Shown: positions 15,771 to 55,160 of the stretch, piece by piece
Position numbering within the stretch: position 1 is the first letter of the stretch
Layout of the letters: every line of letters starts with the position of its first letter
Origin: Narcine bancroftii
Taxonomy: Eukaryota
Direction of reading: 5' to 3'
Assembly: GCF_036971445.1 (NCBI RefSeq)
Contig: NC_091477.1
Location: 108,004,001-108,068,000, forward strand
DNA: 64,000 nucleotides
Program-made: the position numbers and the translations under genes
Notes under the pieces: generated by a model
Databases searched by the model: none
Told to the model about the DNA's origin: nothing
Seen by the model: only the letters and a program-made list of their open reading frames with translations

Positions 15771-16890
15771 ATTTTTTTAAATTTTTTATTTTTCACACTA
15801 AAAAACCATATTGACCAAGATACATACAGACATTCTCTCTCCCGAATATATACAGTGTCATTCTCTCCCTCCCCTTTCCCCCCTCCCTTCCCTCCCTCCC
15901 TCACCCCCCCCCCACCCATTTGAAGCTCAATCTATAAGACACATTAAACCCGCCAAACAATGTTGTCACCCAATAAAAATAAACAAGAAATCCTACTGAG
16001 TCAGTTCTTTTTGTTGTCTTCTCCTTCTGTCATTTTAGGTGGTGGAAGTCCATGGTAGGATTTCCTATTGTATTTCATGTATGGCTCCCATATTTGTTCG
16101 AATATTGTGATGTTATTTCTTAAATTATATGTTATTTTTTCTAATGGAATACATTTATTCATTTCTATGTACCATTGTTGTATTCTCAAGTTGTCTTCTA
16201 ATTTCCAGGTTGACATAATACATTTTTTTGCTACAGCTAGGGCTATCATAACAAATCTTTTTTGTGCTCCATCCAGTCGAGTCCAAATTCTTTATTTCTT
16301 AAATTACTTAGGAGGAAGATCTCTGGGTTTTTTGGTATATTGCTTTTTGTGATTTTATTTAATATCTGGTTTAGATCTTCCCAAAATTTTTTCACTTTCT
16401 GACATGTCCAAATTGCAAGAATTGTTGTTCCCGTTTCCTTTTTACAGTGAAAATATCTGTTTGATACTGTTGGGTCCCATTTATTTAACTTTTGAGGTGT
16501 GATGTATAGCCTGTGTATCCAGTTATATTGTATCATGCGTAACCTCGTGTTTATTGTATTTCTCATAGTTCTGGAGCATAGCTTTTCCCATGTTTCATTC
16601 TTTATCTCTATGTTTAGATCTTGTTTCCATTTTTGTTTAGGTTTACCGTTTGTTTCCTCATTCTCCTTTTCTTGCAGTTTGATGTACATGTTTGTTACAA
16701 ATTTTTTAATTATCATTGTGTCTGTAATCACATATTCAAAATTGCTTCCTTCTGGTAATCTCAGACTGTTTCCCAATTTGTCCTTCAAGTAGATTTTCAG
16801 TTGATGGTATGCAAACATTGTATCGTGAGTTATATTATATTTATCTTTCATTTGTTCAAGGGATAACAATTTATTTCCTGAAAACAATTT
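15771..16890 (-). mobile_element. 5'-truncated L1-clade LINE (ORF2 C-terminal CCHC region and 3' UTR) in AHSG-like intron 6
   Basis: ORFs 16246-16887 and 16001-16249 (IQYNWIHRLYITP...C..E.GT...IWTC..VKKFW). A-rich tail. TSD TCTTGAATAT (15761-15770 and 16891-16900). Confidence 0.9.
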
Positions 16891-16997
16891 TCTTGAATAT
16901 TTAAGGTTTCATTCTACATGGCATCTGCTTCAAGATCAATATGTAAATTTCTCTTTGTAATACTGGTTTAGGTTTAGGTCTAGATCTAAAGCATTAC

Positions 16998-36900: not shown

Positions 36901-37878
36901 ATCTGTATATTTGTAATTATAATGCTTCTCTGTGGACTACTGCAATGCTCTGGCAAAGCCTAGGTTTTAGAAAAGTAAATGCTTAAATCCTTGTCAATCA
37001 GTGGCATAAATGGGGAAAGAAAGTTGAAACAAATGCATGATTTGAAAAGTTGTTTTCTTTGGATTACTCCCAAGGTCTCTCAGTATATTTGATGCCAGTA
37101 CATTTATTTAATAAAGCCTCACCTCTTTGGATTAGATCAGTACAAGGACACCCTCTGCCATCTTGAGCAATGAACCATCTCTTTCCCAAGGTTTAACTTT
37201 CAATTTGGCCAAACATATCTGAGTCTCAGCACTGGTTGTTGATTTACCCCTTCTGCATTCAAGGTCACTATTTACTGAAACTAAAGATCTGTACTTTTTA
37301 TTGATGTAATCTGGCATAATCCCACAGTATACAAAACAGAATTAATGCTACCAGGAGATAAAACCTAGTTATTAACTTTGTGAATAAATTCACTATCTGG
37401 GTTTGCTCCTTTGGTTAACTCAAGTCTCTGATTTGGTGTTACAAAGTCAGGAATTGCTTTTTAATATAAAGACTTGGGGACAATAAGGATCATTTCTATG
37501 ATTCTGTGCATGCAGAGAAGGCAGCATGGTTAGAGCAACACAGTTATAGCTCCAGTGAATCCAGCAATGTCCCTAAGAAGTTTGTACATTCTCCCAGAGT
37601 CTAAATAGGCTTCCTCCAGGTGCTCATCTTTCCTGCCACCCTTCAATACGTACCGGGATTGTAGGTTGATTGGGTGTAATTGGGAGGCATGGGCTTGTGA
37701 GCCAGAAGGGCTATGCTATATATCTAACAAAAAAAAGTGCTTCTAGGGACAGGACTACACTATCAGCCTAAAAACTGGAAGCAGGAGAAACTTCCAATCT
37801 GGCTGTTCCTACTACCAAACCAGTGATATTCTTCTCTGAGAAAAAAAAATGCAAGTTCTAAGACACCACATTCAATAT

Positions 37879-40800
37879 TGTGGTAAACCATTGTTATAAT
37901 GTGATTGGCTACTTCCAGCTGGACACACCTCCTGAGACTGATCCTACCCATTACCCTTTGCATGTTCCCCACTCTTCTTGCTATAGTCAGTCGATGAAGT
38001 TGGATGTTGCTCCACTCTATAATCAATAAATTCTATCAGTTTCACAACCTCAGTCTTTTATGGGAATTGATGGTGCATCAATTTTATTGACTATATTTTT
38101 CAAAGAAAATGGAGCAATACCTAAAAGCAGAGACTCAACGTAGACCGTCAATCCTATGACTCCCTGAACATGTCTGGCTATGTTGCTTTGAGGACTTCCT
38201 GATAGTGACCACGAACATTGTTAACACAGACAAGGACAGACTGAAGCTCCTCTTCTCACAAGTCGGACCCTTGGCCTTCCCAATGATCAACGATGCTAAA
38301 TCATTTGTGGAGGCCAAGGGTTCACTGAAGGTCCAGTATTGCAGAAGGGTGGACAAGGTCTATGCATATCATCACCTGGCTACCAGGATGCAGTAACCTG
38401 GTGAGTCAAGCGCCAAGTACCTATGGGCCCTCATCAGTCTCAGACAGTGAGTCCATATTGGCCTCCATCACCCTGAATCAAGAGGGACAACACAAACTCA
38501 CAACCACGATGGATGTCCAGGCACGAAATAAACTGTTTGTTTGATAGCGAGATTCACCCCAATACCGATAAGTGCCTTCCCCTCAAAGTGCGGCCAGTCA
38601 GCCATAAGATATCACTCACATCCAAATCCCATACAGCAGACATCCACAGATCTTGTAGGATGATTTTGATTGTTGGAGGTACAATCTACAAACACTTCAG
38701 GCTCCTCGTCATGCCGCAACTCTGCATCCCCTTGATACTGGGGCTGGACTTCCAGTGTCAACTTAAGAGCATTACAATGGAATTCGATGGACCCCATCCC
38801 TCCCTCACTGTTTGCAATGAACAATTCCTAGATGGCCTTCTACACGTGACCTGTGCGGTTTCAACTCTCAAGGTCACCCCCCCCCCCCCCCCACTGTTCG
38901 CAAACCTCACCCCCGACTGCAAACTGGTCCAGTGGTTGTTGGGCAAAGGCATTATTGAATTTAGCAAAAGTCCCTGGAGAGCCAAGGTGGTCGTAGTAAA
39001 GAACAGGGTGAAAAATAGGATGATCATTGACTAGAGCCAGATCATCAACCTGTACAAGTAGCTCTATGCATACCCCCTCCCCCACATATCCAATATGCTT
39101 AACCAGATTGCACAATATCGGATATTCTTCGTGATCGACCTTAAGTCAGCCTATCCCCAGCTCTCGATCCACCCGGAGGACCCCCAGTGTACTTCATTCA
39201 AGACAGATGGCCATCTTTACCACATCCTCCAGGTCCCCTTTGGCATCACCAATGGGGTCTCCGTCTTCTAGCAGGAGATGGGGACTGCATGGTGGACCTC
39301 TATAACCTGCAGGCCTCTTTTCCATTTCTTGACAAGGTGACCATCTGTGGCCATGACCTTCAGGGCCACAAAGCTCCTGAACCTTACTTATAACAAGGAG
39401 AAACTAGCCATTCTCAGCTGCATGGTGGAAAACAGCATCACTGGTCCAAACCCTAACCGCATGTGCCTTCTACTGGAGCTACCCATTCCCTACACCCTCA
39501 GTGCCTTGAAGAGATACCTCAGTTTCTTCTCGTACTACACTCAATGGATCCCCAACTATGTGGGCAAAGCTCGCCCATTGGTCAAAGCCACCTCTTTCCC
39601 CCTGTCAGCAGAGGCTTGCTCAGCTTTTGGCCATATCAAGGATGACAACGCCAAAGCAGATGCATGTAATAAATGAATCCACACCTTTCCAGTGGGATAG
39701 TGATGTGTCTGACTTCGTCCTGGCTGCCACACTCAACCAAACAGGCAGACCCATCGCCTTCTTCTCAAACACACTCCAAGGCCCTGAAATCCGCCACTCC
39801 TCAGTTGAAAAGGAGCCCCAGGCCATCGTGGAGATGGAACGACACTGGAGACACTACCTCACTGGCAAACATTTCACCCTCCTCATGGACCAGCAGGCAG
39901 TCACAACCATGTTCAACAACAAGCAGAGGGGCAAAATCAAGAATGATAAAATCCTCAGTTGGAGAATTGAACTGTCTACCTATAACTATGATATTCTGTA
40001 CATGCCTGGGAAGTTGAACAAGCCCATGGATGCCCTCTCCCGCGGAACGCACCAGTATCCAAATGGTCAGATTGCAGACCTTCCACAATCTCTGCCCCTA
40101 TGGAGTGACTACAGTCATGAAGGCCCTCCGCAATATCTTGATGCTCTTTAGGTACCCCAACTTCATCCACAGTGACCGGGAGACCTCATTCATGAGTGAC
40201 GAGGTGCAGGAGTACCTGTTGGCCAGGGGGATTGCCATGAGCAAGACCACCAGCTACAATCCCAGAGAGAATGGGCAGGTGGAAAGGAAGAATGCCACAG
40301 TCTGGAAAACCATCCTCCTGGCCCTGATGTCATGGGCCCTCCTCTTCTCCCACTGGCAAGAGGTCCTCCCAGATGCGCTCCACTCCATATGGTCGCTCTT
40401 ATGTATGGTCACTAACAATACTAACAATGAACGTATGTTTGCCTTCCCTAGGAAGTCTTTGTCAGAGACTACACCGCCTGTCTAGCTGACCTCCCCAGGA
40501 CCGGTCCTCCTTTGGAAGCACGCCAGGCAACCTAAGATTGACCCACTGGTTGAGAGGGTCCACCTCCTCCATGTAAATCCCCAGTACGTCTACGTAGCCT
40601 TCCCCAATAGGCATGAGGACACAGTCCCCATCCTGGATTTGGCACCATTGGGCGCCCCTCCAACCATGATCAACCACCAATAGACTCTCCCCCCTGCCCC
40701 ACACTGACATCTTGGGAGTCCCTGAACCTTGTGCTGACCTCACTCCACCCTGGCAACTGTTGTCACCCTTGATGCACCAGCACCACACTACCTCCTCCTT

Positions 40801-41179
40801 TCACCTGCCCCTTCCCCCCCAGCAAACTAATTGATGATGGCAGACCAGCCACACAAGCTGCCCAGTGGAGACCCCCTGGTGAGGAGACTTGACCTGTAAA
40901 ATGTGTATATGTGTATATATCTGCTTTGTTTTTTACCTCTCACCCTGCAGGATTCTTATTAAAAAGGAAGGGTAAATGTGGTAAACCACTGTTCTACTGT
41001 GATTGTGATTGGCTACTGCTGGCTGGACATGCCTCCTGAGACCAATCCTATTCATTACCCCTTTGCACGCTCCCATTCTTCCTGCCATGATCAGTCCATG
41101 ACTGTTGCTACAGTCTATAGTCAATAAAAGTCTATCAGTTTCACAACCTCAGTCTTTTGTGGTAATTGATGGTGCATCA
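37879..41179 (+). mobile_element. Internally deleted Gypsy LTR retrotransposon with both LTRs (37879-38080 and 40977-41179)
   Basis: LTRs run TGTGGTAAACCA...TGGTGCATCA. TSD AATAT/AATAC. Polypurine tract AAAAAGGAAGGG at 40961-40972. Remnants of gag, protease (CLFDS), RT (SPWRAKVVVVK, IDLKSAY), RNase H (SDVSDFVLAATLNQTGRPIAFFS...EKE) and integrase (IHSDRETSFMS...YNPRENGQVER) in the usual order. Confidence 0.95.
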
Positions 41180-41544
41180 AATACTTAATCATATCTTGCC
41201 TTCCTTGACACAAACAGATATTGTGTACAATTAGAAACATGCTACCAAAATTGTAAGCCTGTTGAACAATTCAACTGGCAAGATTATCCCCAATAAAAAA
41301 AAAAACAACTGGATTTCCACTGTCCTATTCCACTTGCCCAGGGACTGCACACCATTTGTGTGTCCACAATGATACCAAGGCCAAAAAAGCAGTTCATTTC
41401 TCCAGCCATAAGGCACAGGTATGGTTAAATTCGATAATGCAGAAGTAGAAAGGCTAACGTGTAACTACAATTAACTTAACAGTATTTAGTGGTAAAGATA
41501 ATAGAGTCTTCTTCTAAGACCAGTTAAAAAATAAGATATATAAT

Positions 41545-41779
41545 TGATGCACGATCAGTTACTCAAAGACTGAAATTAGTGGAACTGAAGGCTTTTATTA
41601 GCAAGAGATGGACAGCATCCCTTGCGTTGCTGGCTCTCCCCGACCCGGACTCAAACTGGGGGTAGGCTTGTGGTACGACGACCTTTATGGGGGATAAAGG
41701 GGAGGAGTCACGAGTCAGCCAGTGAGAGCAGGGTCAAACATTAAAGGTCATATCATATACATATACAGTAGTGGTTTCA
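41545..41779 (-). mobile_element. Solo LTR, same family as 11311-11565
   Basis: Colinear similarity to 11311-11565 (tgatgcacgatca..caaagactgaa..gatggacagcatccc..ggaggagtcacgag..gtggtttca). Confidence 0.8.
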
Positions 41780-42445
41780 AATGAATTCTCAATTGGATCT
41801 TGCTAGAGCTGACTACCATTTTTCAGGAGGTAACAGACAGCGATGAAATTGCTGATGTTAGTGCAGTGAATAATGGAAAAATAGGAAGAATTAATCTGTT
41901 ATCTGTTGCTTTTCCTCATTTTACTTTTTTGTGTTTTTAGACCTCACTTTAAGCTGTTTATTGAAATCAATGTGGTCTCCAATTATCTTCCAAATCTAAC
42001 TTTGCACATTAATTTCAATAAATAGTTCAAAGTCCTACCTAAAGACACTAAAAACACTTTCAGTTGTTCTTATCTTTACCTTGAAAGCTTAAGATGATAG
42101 GTGACTGCCAATCAAGCAGAGTACTTTTTCTTCAATGGATGTCAAACTTCTTAAGTCTCATCCAAGAAATTGAAGAGTATTCCATCAAACTCCTGACTTG
42201 TGCCTTGTAAATGATGCTAAAGCTTTGAGATGTCAGGTGGTGAATTACTTGCAAGAGGATAACTGGTCTTGCAGCTGAAGTATTTAATAGAACATAGTGC
42301 AGAACAATAACACAGCCTTCATCCCACCATATCTGTGCTACCATGAGGCTAATCGAATTAGTCTCATCTGCCAGCACATGGCCAGAATCTGTTCTCTACC
42401 TACTCATGTGTCTGATAGAATAGCCCCTAATATTTGCTATCATAT

Positions 42446-43554
42446 TTATCATTTGAAAAAATGAAGTACAAATATGGAATAACTCATGGTACAATGTTTG
42501 CATACCACCAACTGAAAACCTACTTAAAGGACAAATTGGGAAGCAGACTGAGGTTACCAGAAAGAAGCAGCTTTGAATATGTGATTACAGAAACAACGAT
42601 AATTAAAAGATTTATAACAAACATGTACATCAAGCTGCAAGAGAAAGAAAATGATGAAATAAGCTATAAACCCAAACAAAAGTAGGAAAAAGATTTGAAC
42701 ATAAAGATAAAAAATGAAGCATGGGAAAAGTTATGCTCTGGAACTATGAAAAATATAATAAATACGAGGTTACGTATGATACAATATAATTGGTTACACA
42801 AGTTATATATCACACCCCAAAAGTTAAATAAATGGGATCCAACATTATCAGATAGATGTTTTCGCTGTAAGAAGGGAACAGGAACAACAGTACATGCAAT
42901 TTGGGCATGTGAGAAAGTGAAAAAGTTTTGGGAAGATCTAAATCAGATATTAAATAAAATCACAAAAAGCAACATACCAAAGAATCCAGAGATCTTTCTT
43001 CTAAGTAATATAAGAAGTAAAGAATTAGGCCTCAAACTGGATGAAGTGCAAAAAAGATTTATTATGATAGCCTTAGCTGTAGCAAAAAAATGTATAATGT
43101 CAACTTGGAAATCAGAAGAGAGCCTGAGAGTACAGCAATGGTACATGGAAATGAATAAATTATTCCATTGGAAAAAAATAACATATAATTTAAAAAATAA
43201 AGTCACAGTATTCAAACAAATTTGGGAACCGTACATAGAACATAACAGAGAGGGCTTGCCTCGGACCTCCACCCCCTAAAATGATAAAATGAGAATAAGA
43301 CAAAATGACCTGATCCAGTGTGTAAAAGTAGATGACACAATTTTCTTGTTTATCTTCATTGTGTGATGACATTGTTTAATGGTTTATTGTATTGTATATG
43401 TTGAACGTTTAATGGGTTTGGAGGGGGTTGGGAAGAAGGGAGGGAAGGAAGGGGGAGAAAAGGGGAGAAAATGCCACTGTGTATATTCAAGAGGGAAATG
43501 TTTGTTTGTATTTTGATTAATATGGTTCATAGTGTGAAAAATAAAAAATTTTAA
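42446..43554 (+). mobile_element. 5'-truncated L1-clade LINE
   Basis: ORFs 42434-42685 and 42695-43279 with an intact CCHC (CFRC...H.IWAC). 14-bp TSD ATTTGCTATCATAT (42432-42445 and 43555-43568). Confidence 0.92.
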
Positions 43555-48965: not shown

Positions 48966-49839
48966 GCTTGTCACATATTTTGCTTAGCTGCTAACTCGGG
49001 AAATAAATGCCCACTCTTACAGAATTATATCCTATTCCCATGGGAGAGTTAATTTGTTGACTACGTAGAGTTGATAGACAAACAGGGCAATGTGAGATAT
49101 AATAGAATTTTCCAAAAGCTCAGGTTGTGAATGGAAACATTTAGGTTCTTGTTCAAGTTGTGAGGTGTATTTGCCAACTCATTGCATGGAATAATTTACA
49201 AAATACATAAAAGCTCCGTGTTGGGTTTAATCTTGCATTGTGATGCAAGATTTGAATTATGGAATTGCACCCAATGACATCAAAAGAAAATTCAACCGAG
49301 TGTAAAACAGACTGATAACTTACCATTATCCAACGGACATCATCACCTAAGGCAAATTTCATCCCATTAGAATTACACAATTTAACCATTATGTTTCCCT
49401 GAATTAAAAACACAGCAGGCCTAACTGTTCAGTAATAACCATGCCAAGTTGGATGCACAGTCAGCACCTGCCAGAAGGAACACTAAGAACATTTGTGATT
49501 CTGTCCTTGATGTGAACATCCTTGACTCTTTATCACAGTATTCTATCTTGTCCAACCATGCTGTGTGTCTGTGTCCAATAAGAAGGCAGAATGCCCAATG
49601 GAAAGTAACAAGACCTCGAGCGTTGAAATTCTAAAACTTTGCAGAGAGGAGCTTCAGTTTCACAACCTCATCTTCTGCATTTGCGAAGGAAAGGATATGT
49701 CTGAAGACCTGAAAGTTACTCTATTCATAACTACCTTCAGAATAAGAGCCTGGCTAATTGTGATAGCTACAGTGCAAACCGTTCTTGAAAATGCTTGACA
49801 CCCATGGCCACTCTTGAGAATCCTTGGCCCATGACTACT

Positions 49840-51550: not shown

Positions 51551-52379
51551 GGTGCATGCCACCTGGTACACCTTATCAACCCTTAGACCATTTAGTATCG
51601 TCTCTCATGATCTTGACCGCACTCACTTTGCCACGGTTACGTACTTACCTGCATCGGGCGTGGTGCTGGTCGCCGCTGATGACGTGCAGGAGTCATAGCA
51701 TGCACGCGCGGGTTCGTTAAGCAGCCAGCTTACAGGTGATGGACCTTGGATGCAGGAGGAAAAGAGTGAGAGTGTCGGGATCACCCATGTGAAAGTGAGC
51801 CAATGTGAAGATCAGAGGGTAGCGTTTGGGGGGCTGAAGAATGCCGTGTGGTGTCCGAAGAGAATAAAGAAAGTCGACTCCATTTTGCGATGAAAGAAAC
51901 GAGTGAGTGTATTCTTGATTTGTTTGTAAACAGTGTGCTTACAACTTTTCTTCCGAGAGAGCCGCAGTGAAGACTGATCCAAAATGGAAAGAAGAAGCAT
52001 TCAGGATGCCACGGAGAACCTTGGATCCAAGGGAGGTGTCAGATGGATCCTTTTATCACAAATCAACTGCCTGCTTTATCCCATTAAGCACCTCCTACAC
52101 CACTGACATTAGAATATGAGTGTCTCACCACGGATCTGAGTGGAAGCAAGACACTCTGCCCTGAGCTTGGAGCTTAAGAAGAACTGTCAATCCGCAGGAA
52201 TGACCAGCAATGGACAGTTATTGGCAGCTCCTGGCCCCAAATATCACATTCTATCAACACATTTTGGGGTAGAAGGCAAGTTGCCAGTTAGTGAGAGTTC
52301 CACTGACTCATGGCCAAAGTGAGGGAAAAGAGAAGGAAGCAAGAGGTGCAATCCAAAATTGGGGGCTGTCTTGAAGGGA

Positions 52380-52760
52380 CAGGGGGGGCGGGGCGTGCGC
52401 AAAGTGGGTGGCCCTCCAGGGGCGGGGGCTGGGCAAGGTGGGTGGGTTGTGGTGACAATCAGCCAGCAAAGTGGTGTGGCTGGGCGCAGGGCAAGAGCCG
52501 GTGGGGCGGCTGGGTTGCTGCCGGGCGGTGCGTGTGCGCGCTCTCGCGTGCGGCGGATCGGGCGATGCCGAGCGCCTGGCGGTGCTGCCTGATCTGCGGC
52601 TGGCTGCTCTGCTCGCTGCTGCCGGCGGGCGCGCGGCGATCCGGGGACGGCGCGGCTGCGGAGGGCGTATCTCGCGCCAGGTGCACCTCGCGCTGCCTGG
52701 CGCTGCACATCGTACACCTGAGCGCGAGCTTCAGGAGTCTGCAGGTAAGGCTGGCCCCTG
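52380..52760 (+). promoter_or_regulatory. CpG island promoter with GC boxes (anosmin gene)
   Basis: Sharp GC and CpG enrichment in an otherwise CpG-depleted window. GGGGCGGGG (Sp/KLF) at ~52385 and ~52419. Confidence 0.8.
52565..52744 (+). CDS. ANOS1: Anosmin (ANOS1/KAL1 family) coding exon 1: MPSAWRCCLICGWLLCSLLPAGARRSGDGAAAEGVSRARCTSRCLALHIVHLSASFRSLQ. Later exons not found in the window; may be the anos1b-type paralog.
   Basis: Signal peptide plus V.RARC.SRCL.L.I...SA.F...Q, matching recalled anosmin-1 exon 1. CAG|GTAAGG phase-0 donor; 180 nt. Confidence 0.85.
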
Positions 52761-54470
52761 GGTCTGGGGGGGGGGGGGGAGGGAGGGAGAGGGGACCCTG
52801 GGTCTGGGGAAGGGAGAGGGGGTCCCTGGGTCTGGGGAAGGGAGGGGGGGTCCCTGGGTCTAGGGAAGGGAGAGGAGTCCCTGGGTCTGGGGAAGGGAGA
52901 GGGGGTCCCTGGGTCTGGGGAAGGGAGAGGGGTCCCTGGGTCTGGGGAAGGGAGAGGGGGTCCCTGGGTCTGGGGAAGGGAGAGGGGGTCCCTGGGTCTG
53001 AGGGAAGGGAGAGGGGGTCCCTGGGTCTGGGGAAGGGAGGGGGGGTCCCTGGGTCTAGGGAAGGGAGAGGAGTCCCTGGGTCTGGGGAAGGGAGAGGGGG
53101 TCCCTGGGTCTGGGGAAGGGAGAGGGGTCCCTGGATCTGGGGAAGGGAGAGGGATCCCTGGATCTGGGGAGGGGAGAGGACTCCCTAGATATGGAGAAGG
53201 GAGAGGGGTCCCTGGGTCTGGGGAAGGGAGAGGGGGTCCCTGGGTCTGGGGAAGGGAGAGGGGTCCCTGGGTCTGGGGAAGGGAGAGGACTCCCTAGATA
53301 TGGGGAAGGGAGAGGGGTCCCTGGATCTGGGGGAAGGGAGAGGGGTCCCTGGGTCTGAGGGAAGGGAGAGGGGTCCCTGGGTCTGGGAAAGGGAGAGGGA
53401 TCCCTGGATCTGGGGAAGGGAGAGGGATCCCTGGATCTGGGGAGGGGAGAGGACTCCCTAGATATGGAGAAGGGAGAGGGGTCCTTGGGTCTGGGGAAGG
53501 GAGAGGGGTCCCTGGGTCTGGGGAAGGTAGAGGGGTCCCTGGGTCTGGGGAAGGGAGAGGGATCCCTGGGTCTAGGGAAGGGAGAGGGGTCTCTGGGTCT
53601 AGGGAGGGGAGAGGAGTCCCTGGGTCTGGGGAAGGGAGAGGGGTCCCTGGGTCTGAGGAAGGGAGAGGAGTCCCTGGGTCTGGGGAAGGGAGAGGGGTCC
53701 TTGGGTCTGGGGGGGGGGGGGGGGGGGGGAAGGGAGAGGGGACCCTGGATCTGTGGAAGGGAGAGGAGTCCCTGGATCTGGGGAAGGGAGAGGAGTCCCT
53801 GGGTCTGGGGAAGGGAGAGGGGTCCCTGGGTCTGGGGAAGGGAGAGTGGTCCCTGGGTCTGGGGAAGGGAGAGGGGTCCCTGGGTCTGGGGAAGGGAGAG
53901 GGATCCCTGGGTCTGGGGAAGGGAGAGGGGTCTCTGGGTCTAGGGAAGGGAGAGGAGTCCCTGGGTCTGGGGAAGGGAGAGGGGGTCCTTGGGTCTGGGG
54001 GGGAAGGGAGAGGGGACCCTGGATCTGGGGAAGGGAGAGGAGTCCCTGGATCTGGGGAAGGGAGAGGGGTCCTTGGGTCTGGGGGGGGAAGGGAGAGGGG
54101 ACCCTGGGTCTGGGGAAGGGAGAGGAGTCCCTGGGTCTGGGGAAGGGAGAGGAGTCCCTGGGTCTGGGGAAGGGAGAGGGGTCCCTTGGTCTGGGGAAGG
54201 GAGAGGGGTCCCTGGGTCTGAGGAAGGGAGAGGAGTCCCTGGGTCTGGGGAAGGGAGAGGGGTCCCTGGGTCTGGGGAAGGGAGAGGGGACCCTGGGTCT
54301 GGGGAAGGGAGAGGAGTCCCTGGGTCTGGGGAAGGGAGAGGGGGTCCCTGGGTCTGGGGAAGGGAGAGGGGTCCCTGGGTCTGGGGAAGTGAGAGGACTC
54401 CCTGGGTCTGGGGAAGGGAGAGGACTCCCTAGATATGGGGAGGAGAGAGGGGTCCTTGGATCTGGGGAGA
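52755..54470 (+). repeat. 27(-28)-bp G-rich minisatellite, about 60 copies, in anosmin intron 1
   Basis: Unit GGGTCTGGGGAAGGGAGAGGGGTCCCT. The 9-aa periodic ORFs (GSLGLGKGE, GVPGSGEGR, PWVWGRERG) confirm the period. Confidence 0.97.
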
Positions 54471-55160
54471 GGGATTCCTGGATTGGGGTGAAGGGGAAAT
54501 CCCTGGATCTGGGGAGAGAGAAGGGGAAATCCCTGGATTTGTCGAGGGGAAAGTGGTCCCTAGATCTAAAGAGAGGAGAGGGATCCCTGGATCTCAGGAG
54601 AGAGGGGGTCCCTGGACCTCAGGATCTGGGGAGAGACAGGGTTCCTTTATCTTGGGAGAGAAGAGGGAACTGTGGATCTCAGGAGAGTGATCCATGTATT
54701 TCGGGAGAGGAGAGGGATCCCTAAACCTCAGGAAGGAAGAGGAATCCCAGGATCTTGGGAGAGGACAAGGATGGGGATCCATGGATCTTGAAAGAGGGGA
54801 GGGATCATTGGATCTCAGAAGGGATCCCTGGATCTCAGGAGAGGAGAGGAATAGCTGCATTTGGCAAAAGAAGGAGCTCTTGCATTATGAGAGGCGAATC
54901 CTGGGTATAGGATCAGGCAAATCCCTACATCTAGGGAGAGAAGCGGGAATCACTGGATCTCAGGAGGAGGGAAATTCCCTAGTTCTGGGGGAGAAATAAT
55001 GAAAGAGGATTCCTGAATACAAGGTGAGATAATTGGGGGTTCCAGGAAGTGATAATCCCTCGATCTTGTAGGGGAGAGAGAAATCCTGAGACTGGGAAGA
55101 GGATTGGGGATCAGGGAAATCCCTAGACCTGGGAGAAGAGCGGGGGTTTCTTGAATGTGC
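54471..55160 (+). repeat. Degenerate older extension of the minisatellite
   Basis: Recurrent ..atccctggatct(c/g)ggga(g)ag.. units that diverge progressively. More remnants at ~55570-55650. Confidence 0.75.

Follow-up and report, generated by a model that had tools for sequence, protein, structure and literature searches.

The window, that is, the whole 64-kb stretch of Narcine bancroftii DNA analysed here, carries a 3.3 kb Gypsy remnant (37879–41179, +), a dead copy broken by stops, frameshifts and deletions. Its 5′ LTR (37879–38080, +) starts with TG, ends with CA and is identical to the 3′ LTR (40977–41179, +) in 168/195 ungapped columns (86%). The element is flanked by target site duplications, AATAT on the left (37874–37878, +) and AATAC on the right (41180–41184, +), with one mismatch between the two copies. 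Downstream of the 5′ LTR, a start codon opens a decayed, shortened gag region interrupted by stops (38109–38542, +), for which comparison with P0027 gave no tblastn match at E 1e-3. It is followed by the remains of protease and reverse transcriptase (38543–39667, +), in which stops, frameshifts and deletions have accumulated, an RNase H remnant (39666–40094, +), an integrase remnant that has lost its N-terminal zinc-binding part and is without a chromodomain (40111–40653, +), and a polypurine tract (40961–40976, +) that abuts the 3′ LTR. The TG…CA LTRs, 5-bp target duplication and purine tract are those of Ty3/Gypsy elements, as is the domain order protease–reverse transcriptase–RNase H–integrase, which is present both here and in relatives of the element. 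An Rfam scan of 37000–42000 gave no match.

Elsewhere in the window, a 63-nt piece at 41538–41599 (−) resembles the LTR end of the element's own family, hereafter family A, at 77%, and a 17-nt piece at 49654–49670 (+) matches that LTR end exactly. Two 3′ remnants, at 42431–43279 (+) and 16246–16908 (−), are related to each other and resemble L1/Tx1-type ORF2 ends. A G-rich minisatellite of 60–75 copies of a 27-bp unit (52782–54849) lies just downstream of a GC-rich, promoter- or first-exon-like stretch (∼52300–52780).

The sequence that follows the 5′ LTR reads ATTTTATTGACTATA (38081–38095). Within it, the 14-mer that begins one base past the LTR, TTTTATTGACTATA (38082–38095, +), is the exact reverse complement of 41116–41129 (+) in the 3′ LTR, as the initial annotation of this DNA had reported. 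The equivalent arm of the 5′ LTR (38018–38031, +) is complementary to this putative primer-binding site at 12/14 positions; the two differences that had been noted between the arms hold for an ungapped comparison, while gapped alignment reduces them to one substitution and a 1-nt loss in an A run. The 14-mer and its complement occur once each within the window, and in ∼18,900 stretches of 203 nt drawn at random from it the complement to the post-LTR 20-mer reached 9 nt at most. The arm in the 5′ LTR overlaps an AATAAA, with a predicted cut at its 3′ end, and a predicted R/U5 hairpin (38033–38071, +; z −2.5 for a fold of 38010–38105) lies immediately 3′ of it. An initiator-like TCAGTC (37987–37992, +), the A of which (37989) is 43 nt before the arm end, is a candidate transcription start on the basis of its sequence and of the analogy with families B and C described below.

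The site is not of the tRNA type. The lack of a TGG-type site after the 5′ LTR, remarked on in the initial annotation, extends to the clade at large, 0/19 of whose sites have TGG in their first 8 nt. The comparison with host tRNAs that it had proposed was carried out with 27 distinct tRNAs representing 13 anticodons, a partial set, and gave longest matches of 5–8 nt. One family's site matched the anticodon arm of tRNA-Asn over 8 nt, which is within chance, and this candidate was rejected. As a control, the host genome supplied five integrase-first (Gmr1-type) elements, whose sites contain TGG and whose self-complementarity is only 5–7 nt. Of the 12 SH3_Tf2-bearing loci picked as chromovirus controls, 10 were integrase-first by domain order or reverse transcriptase match and one had no match; L153 supplied the chromovirus query. 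Loci L154–L162, which are of the Gmr1 type, pass the SH3_Tf2-1 cut-off, and their primer site, of the TGGGGG type, lies 4 nt past the LTR.

Relatives in the host genome were sought with the family-A LTR and leader, which yielded 2,594 first-look candidates, 40 of them scored. Seventy-two places in the genome match the LTR end and site of family A exactly. In 29 other family-A copies the site paired with the copy's own 5′ LTR at a mean of 12.6/14 positions (control 8.1), perfectly in 7/29; because the query carried the mutated arm, the search itself did not favour pairing from the side of the LTR. Family B is a young sister family with an ORF near 1,450 aa and LTR pairs that are mostly 97–100% identical; within its single ORF, Gag and protease are separated by an Ala/Thr-rich tandem repeat that varies (P0006 residues ∼315–440; L032–L050). 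Families C, D and E are also present. Each sister family has its own distinct site and an arm that matches that site, and the sites of A and B are separated by four compensatory changes. Among the family-B junctions listed, ∼87/94 carry a perfect 14-mer (a by-eye count in the first 100 rows), and the bases after the 14-mer vary.

Named relatives of the element come from rays, catsharks, cnidarians, molluscs, an isopod, a tunicate, moths, a ctenophore, a nematode and other insects. We tabulated one copy from each of 18 families that are 45–80% identical in protein; L099, which is off register by a 2-nt spacer, was counted as a miss, and family E (L038), which the anchor missed and which is paired at 13/14 positions by eye, was left out. 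Covariation across subfamilies had been put forward in the initial annotation as a check, and the sites do change from family to family, each still pairing with its own LTR, both in the table and among A, B and C. Site positions 1–13 are Watson–Crick paired in 15–18/18 families, pairing decays beyond position 16, and only 4–6/18 families are paired by positions 17–19. Positions 4–13 are perfect in 13/18 own pairings as compared with 2/306 cross-family pairings, and 10 of the first 14 positions show at least two pair types, some of them due to register. The arm end is nearly always AAA and then RCC, with the site beginning one base after CA, and arm position −10 is G in 16/18 families. The 18 families are related to each other and are therefore not independent. 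In a metagenome sample of 80 loci, 25 had enough leader, several of them from one assembly; a rule-based scan found a perfect 11–19-bp inverted repeat in 17/25, beaten by 0/30 shuffles, and of the eight that failed the scan four pair imperfectly on inspection. The pairing of site and arm is real, functional-looking and clade-wide.

The initial annotation had pointed out that the paired segment includes the poly(A) signal. This is so in the window, where the arm overlaps AATAAA, and not universally so in the clade: AATAAA or ATTAAA stands at the arm end in only 9/18 families, the other nine having no canonical hexamer there. Masking of the 5′ poly(A) signal by the predicted fold is plausible, because the hexamer would lie inside R.

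A search of viral contigs found no relative, and none of 30 representatives that were looked up yielded an element name. Motif searches of the text-readable published supplements for the named animal clades Cigr-1, Tor2, MolGy and PolGy gave no match; the clade may already carry a name in the reference sets of PMC8556966, PMC6238403 or PMC12471100.

The absence of a chromodomain, from which the initial annotation had suggested a separate lineage, holds in the window, where a scan of six frames matched no chromodomain family, and in 40/40 full-length relatives, among which neither a chromodomain nor a Tf2-type SH3 was found (0/40); the fish reference set does have chromodomain-bearing elements. 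A reverse transcriptase phylogeny, also advocated there, was built from RT–RNase H domains (291, thinned to 66 and then 45 rows) that included fish chromodomain elements and other Gypsy domains, with fish sushi-like rows present and Tf1 absent. It places the clade (support 100/100) outside the chromovirus branch (100/99), Mag-type rows receiving 97/95. The Mag A/B/C and CsRN1 labels of tree rows, which were assigned from motifs, are presumptive. A grouping of the clade with these presumed Mag rows was supported at 80/90, was unstarred and was absent from the quick tree. Nesting of the clade with the fish sushi-like rows gave p-AU 0.051, and a sister relation to all chromoviruses gave p-AU 0.36. 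A lineage separate from the chromoviruses is thus upheld in so far as the clade is robust and lies outside them, although the tree test leaves room for the two being sister groups. The RNase H fragment of the window, included in the 66-row tree only, falls next to P0006 and P0027 with support 99. As judged from domain content and tree position, the clade falls outside the Tf1/sushi group as that group is defined, and self-priming would likely have had an origin in it independent of that group.

If the element's own RNA serves as primer and stays attached, plus-strand synthesis should sometimes overrun the 14-mer into LTR-complementary bases. A footprint pattern consisting of the LTR end, the site and the next LTR-complementary bases was fixed before the search. 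Family B has 271 such junctions and family C 124, some of the latter in tandem arrays, and in each family 99 of the 100 listed show the predicted base; in the window's family A 2/5 matches are of this kind, and L223, L227 and L289 are inverted-LTR products of that family.

Breakpoints were mapped in 90 of the 271 family-B loci. Full snap-backs, in which a full LTR runs through a single A into positions 192 to 1 in inverted orientation, account for 21/90. Perfect 5-bp duplications flank 16/21 of these, and likewise 14/14 U5-truncated products with both ends in view, which argues that the products were inserted by integrase. A fold-back template switch could occur at any inverted repeat, so that the full snap-backs alone are no proof of priming. 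In 13 loci the inverted copy jumps to element sequence, and 12/13 of these (10/11 distinct joins) stop at LTR positions 136–155, 38–56 nt from the arm end, 136 being the farthest. Position 141 is the A of a TCATTC situated 52 nt upstream of the arm end, with CTTAAAG ∼30 nt upstream; TCATTC fits the initiator consensus TCAKTY (PMC3601003). Seven further loci stop at 80–177 with no element neighbour, so that 12/20 stops overall fall at 136–155. In 29 loci a truncated U5 piece is joined to element sequence, 24/29 of them starting at 181–202 with a mode of 192, which is the arm end of the family. The other 27/90 loci had no neighbour by the rule used, or took other forms. The inverted copy runs through all of U3 to position 1 in 60/90 loci. 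Some inverted copies (L223, L231, L342), among them one of family A (L223), continue into the purine tract and internal sequence.

In family C, 30 of 124 loci were mapped. The initiator A is at 130, and stops at 132–137 occurred in two independent events; six U5 pieces start at 176–192, around the arm end at 183, and others at 51–202, one of them at 129. A TATA/initiator pair is common to families B and C. We infer that the cluster of jump stops marks the RNA 5′ end and the cluster of U5 starts the end of the strong-stop copy. A strict TCAKTY 30–60 nt upstream is found in only 4/18 families, and primer length may therefore differ elsewhere.

Two candidates were discarded in the course of this mapping: six loci with a U5 start at 210, considered as a poly(A)-site signal, proved to be single LTRs into which an inverted U5 piece had been inserted, and were left uncounted; and the footprint breakpoints spoke against an 18-nt primer that would begin 4 nt ahead of the arm. 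Other aberrant forms include single LTRs of families B and C with an inverted U5 piece right after the arm (L205, L234, L239, L263, L265, L266, L327, L344), a 5′ LTR with a simple inversion of the arm-to-site loop and gag next to it (L269), and inverted copies reaching 4 nt into the purine tract (L237, L243, L279), which recall tract retention on Tf1 cDNA ends. Tandem arrays with a 278-bp unit made of a family-C LTR and an inverted primer copy were seen at L330–L333 and L341 (arrays at G000:C11:238647254–238650055 and G000:C9:30112839–30114252). They are likely to be one aberrant product that kept amplifying, and the unit is possibly a non-autonomous derivative.

Taken together, the element belongs, as a decayed copy, to a Gypsy clade that is animal-wide and lacks a chromodomain, and we consider it probable that this clade primes reverse transcription with a ∼45–55-base fragment that is predicted to be cut from the 5′ end of its own RNA. 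The proposal of self-priming in the initial annotation is supported by compensatory change, by sites with neither TGG nor a match in the partial tRNA set, and by the breakpoints of aberrant insertions. Transcription would start at an initiator ∼50 nt upstream of the arm end, most likely 43–54 nt before it; this places the start of R ∼30–40 nt upstream of the paired segment, and not at the segment itself as had been suggested. The arm would pair with the site, a 5′ hairpin and the R/U5 hairpin flanking the duplex, and the RNA would be cut just 3′ of the A run of the arm (after AATAAAA), probably by the element's RNase H, by analogy with Tf1. Reverse transcriptase would extend the new 3′ end, copying one base and then U5 back to the cut. 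With the primer still attached, plus-strand synthesis would use it as the template for a fresh copy of the site, and site and arm would thereby stay matched. Retroviral plus-strand synthesis is stopped by a modified tRNA base; here it would normally halt after ∼14 nt, perhaps at the 5′ hairpin, and overrun would give rise to the inverted-LTR products that integrase inserts. The primer would be 52 nt in family B (start near 141, cut at 192/193) and 54 nt in family C, and by extension perhaps 43 nt in the window family, from the TCAGTC at 37987. With such starts the primer would be longer than that of Tf1, and only its 3′ 14 nt would pair. The leader of family B folded from position 141 gave a z of only −1.5, with the predicted 5′ hairpin partly open in the centroid. 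On the complete scheme, an independent, animal-wide self-priming with a capped, hairpin-bearing ∼50-nt primer that pairs only through its 3′ 14 nt and is cut immediately behind the poly(A) hexamer, with the hairpin acting as plus-strand stop, its cap and cut mapped by hundreds of integrase-made insertions, our own judgement is evenly balanced.

An arrangement exactly like that of Tf1, in which transcription begins at the arm itself or no more than a few bases away and the primer is only 14–19 nt long, would fit the sharp end of pairing at 13–16 nt in most families and the YA-type step ∼18 nt before the arm end in several, and Tf1 itself works in this way (PMC7175516). Nevertheless, the jumping inverted copies stop mostly at 136–155, at the TATA/initiator pair of families B and C, and only five family-B loci stop at 170–177, making this arrangement unlikely for the clade in general; a Tf1-like short primer may hold for some invertebrate families.

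The arm copy in the 3′ LTR might instead provide the primer, if a cut after AATAAAA near the 3′ terminus of the genomic RNA left an end that pairs with the site. The overlap of arm and poly(A) signal in half of the tabulated families speaks for this, as do the copies that reach position 1 and the three that go on into the purine tract and internal sequence. Such a primer would have no end at 141, where the jumps cluster, and the U5 pieces start near 193, away from the cap, indicating that the 5′ copy of the template is cut; the run-through could also arise if the primer copy were transferred to the 3′ repeat. We find this route improbable.

Equally little credence attaches to priming by a host RNA, a tRNA half or another small RNA, with the role of the fold-back confined to masking the 5′ poly(A) signal or aiding packaging. 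Copia lineages are known to prime with tRNA halves (PMC6317226), sequence conservation is seen at some arm positions, such as the G at −10, and our tRNA screen covered part of the host set. Against these stand a site that varies among families yet tracks each LTR, a best tRNA match of 8 nt among the tRNAs compared, and the U5 pieces, since an outside primer should give a strong-stop copy extending to the cap at 141 and 24/29 pieces start at 181–202. That the complementarity is a chance match or a one-off inversion without function is next to inconceivable, the A+T richness of the 14-mer notwithstanding, given its fixed position and its compensatory change across families so divergent in protein.

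Self-priming by the fragment of the element's own 5′ RNA, if true, would make a large animal clade, with hosts among ctenophores, cnidarians, molluscs, a nematode, arthropods, a tunicate and cartilaginous fishes, a further origin of this mode of replication, and the clade would escape dependence on tRNA supply and silencing by tRNA fragments. Reading breakpoints makes the prediction testable from genomes, giving start and cut site for families that have not been assayed, and it explains a class of palindromic LTR insertions, together with 278-bp tandem arrays, that would be overlooked in repeat annotation. To our knowledge, fission-yeast Tf1 is the only element for which experiments have demonstrated self-priming; elsewhere it is a prediction from complementarity. 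Some animal Gypsy entries in Repbase are called self-primed. A literature search, which lay outside Repbase and most subscription papers, found no account of self-priming in a non-chromoviral animal Gypsy clade.

The trait is also predicted outside the Tf1/sushi group, in other hosts and lineages: plant Tcn1 chromoviruses and the copia elements TAR, Houba and Osr1 show LTR–site complementarity of at least 10 bases (PMC6317226), for which the account given there describes no breakpoint evidence. Skipper is reported to have neither a tRNA site nor a complement (PMC5006619). The flatworm elements Saci2 and lennie resemble the present clade as non-chromoviral Gypsy elements with a fused gag-pol and a variable primer site (PMC12471100), but are described as having 4-bp duplications and tRNA-Leu-type sites (PMC12471100; PMC4558846) where the clade has 5-bp duplications and no TGG; no flatworm-named protein appeared among the clade matches listed. 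The Mag lineage, weakly nearest in the tree (80/90), shares short LTRs, a 5-bp duplication, a compact build and the lack of a chromodomain. The Mag elements described, however, use tRNA-Leu, -Ser or -Arg sites (PMC3286476), whereas the clade has none and has a long stem of its own. The closest parallel in mechanism is with Tf1/Tf2, Tj1 and the wider Tf1/sushi group, which likewise lack a tRNA site and have a site that complements their own 5′ LTR and an adjoining U5 stem (PMC7175516; PMC4600332); for Tj1 and the vertebrate sushi elements self-priming has been inferred (PMC4600332). Tf1 primes with the first 11 bases of its RNA, cut by RNase H (PMC7175516), and about half of its cDNA keeps the copied site, which guides odd insertions (PMC11042837); a copied primer sequence at the cDNA end, visible in odd insertions, would be common to Tf1 and the clade. 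Unlike the Tf1/sushi elements, the clade has no chromodomain or Tf2-type SH3, has one ORF of ∼1,200 aa, and has an RT–RNase H outside the chromovirus branch. Its arm is 13–19 nt long and, as judged from DNA breakpoints, would be set back ∼40 nt from the RNA 5′ end in families B and C. What these two young families add to the known systems is breakpoint evidence and a putative long primer, unlike the 11-mer of Tf1.
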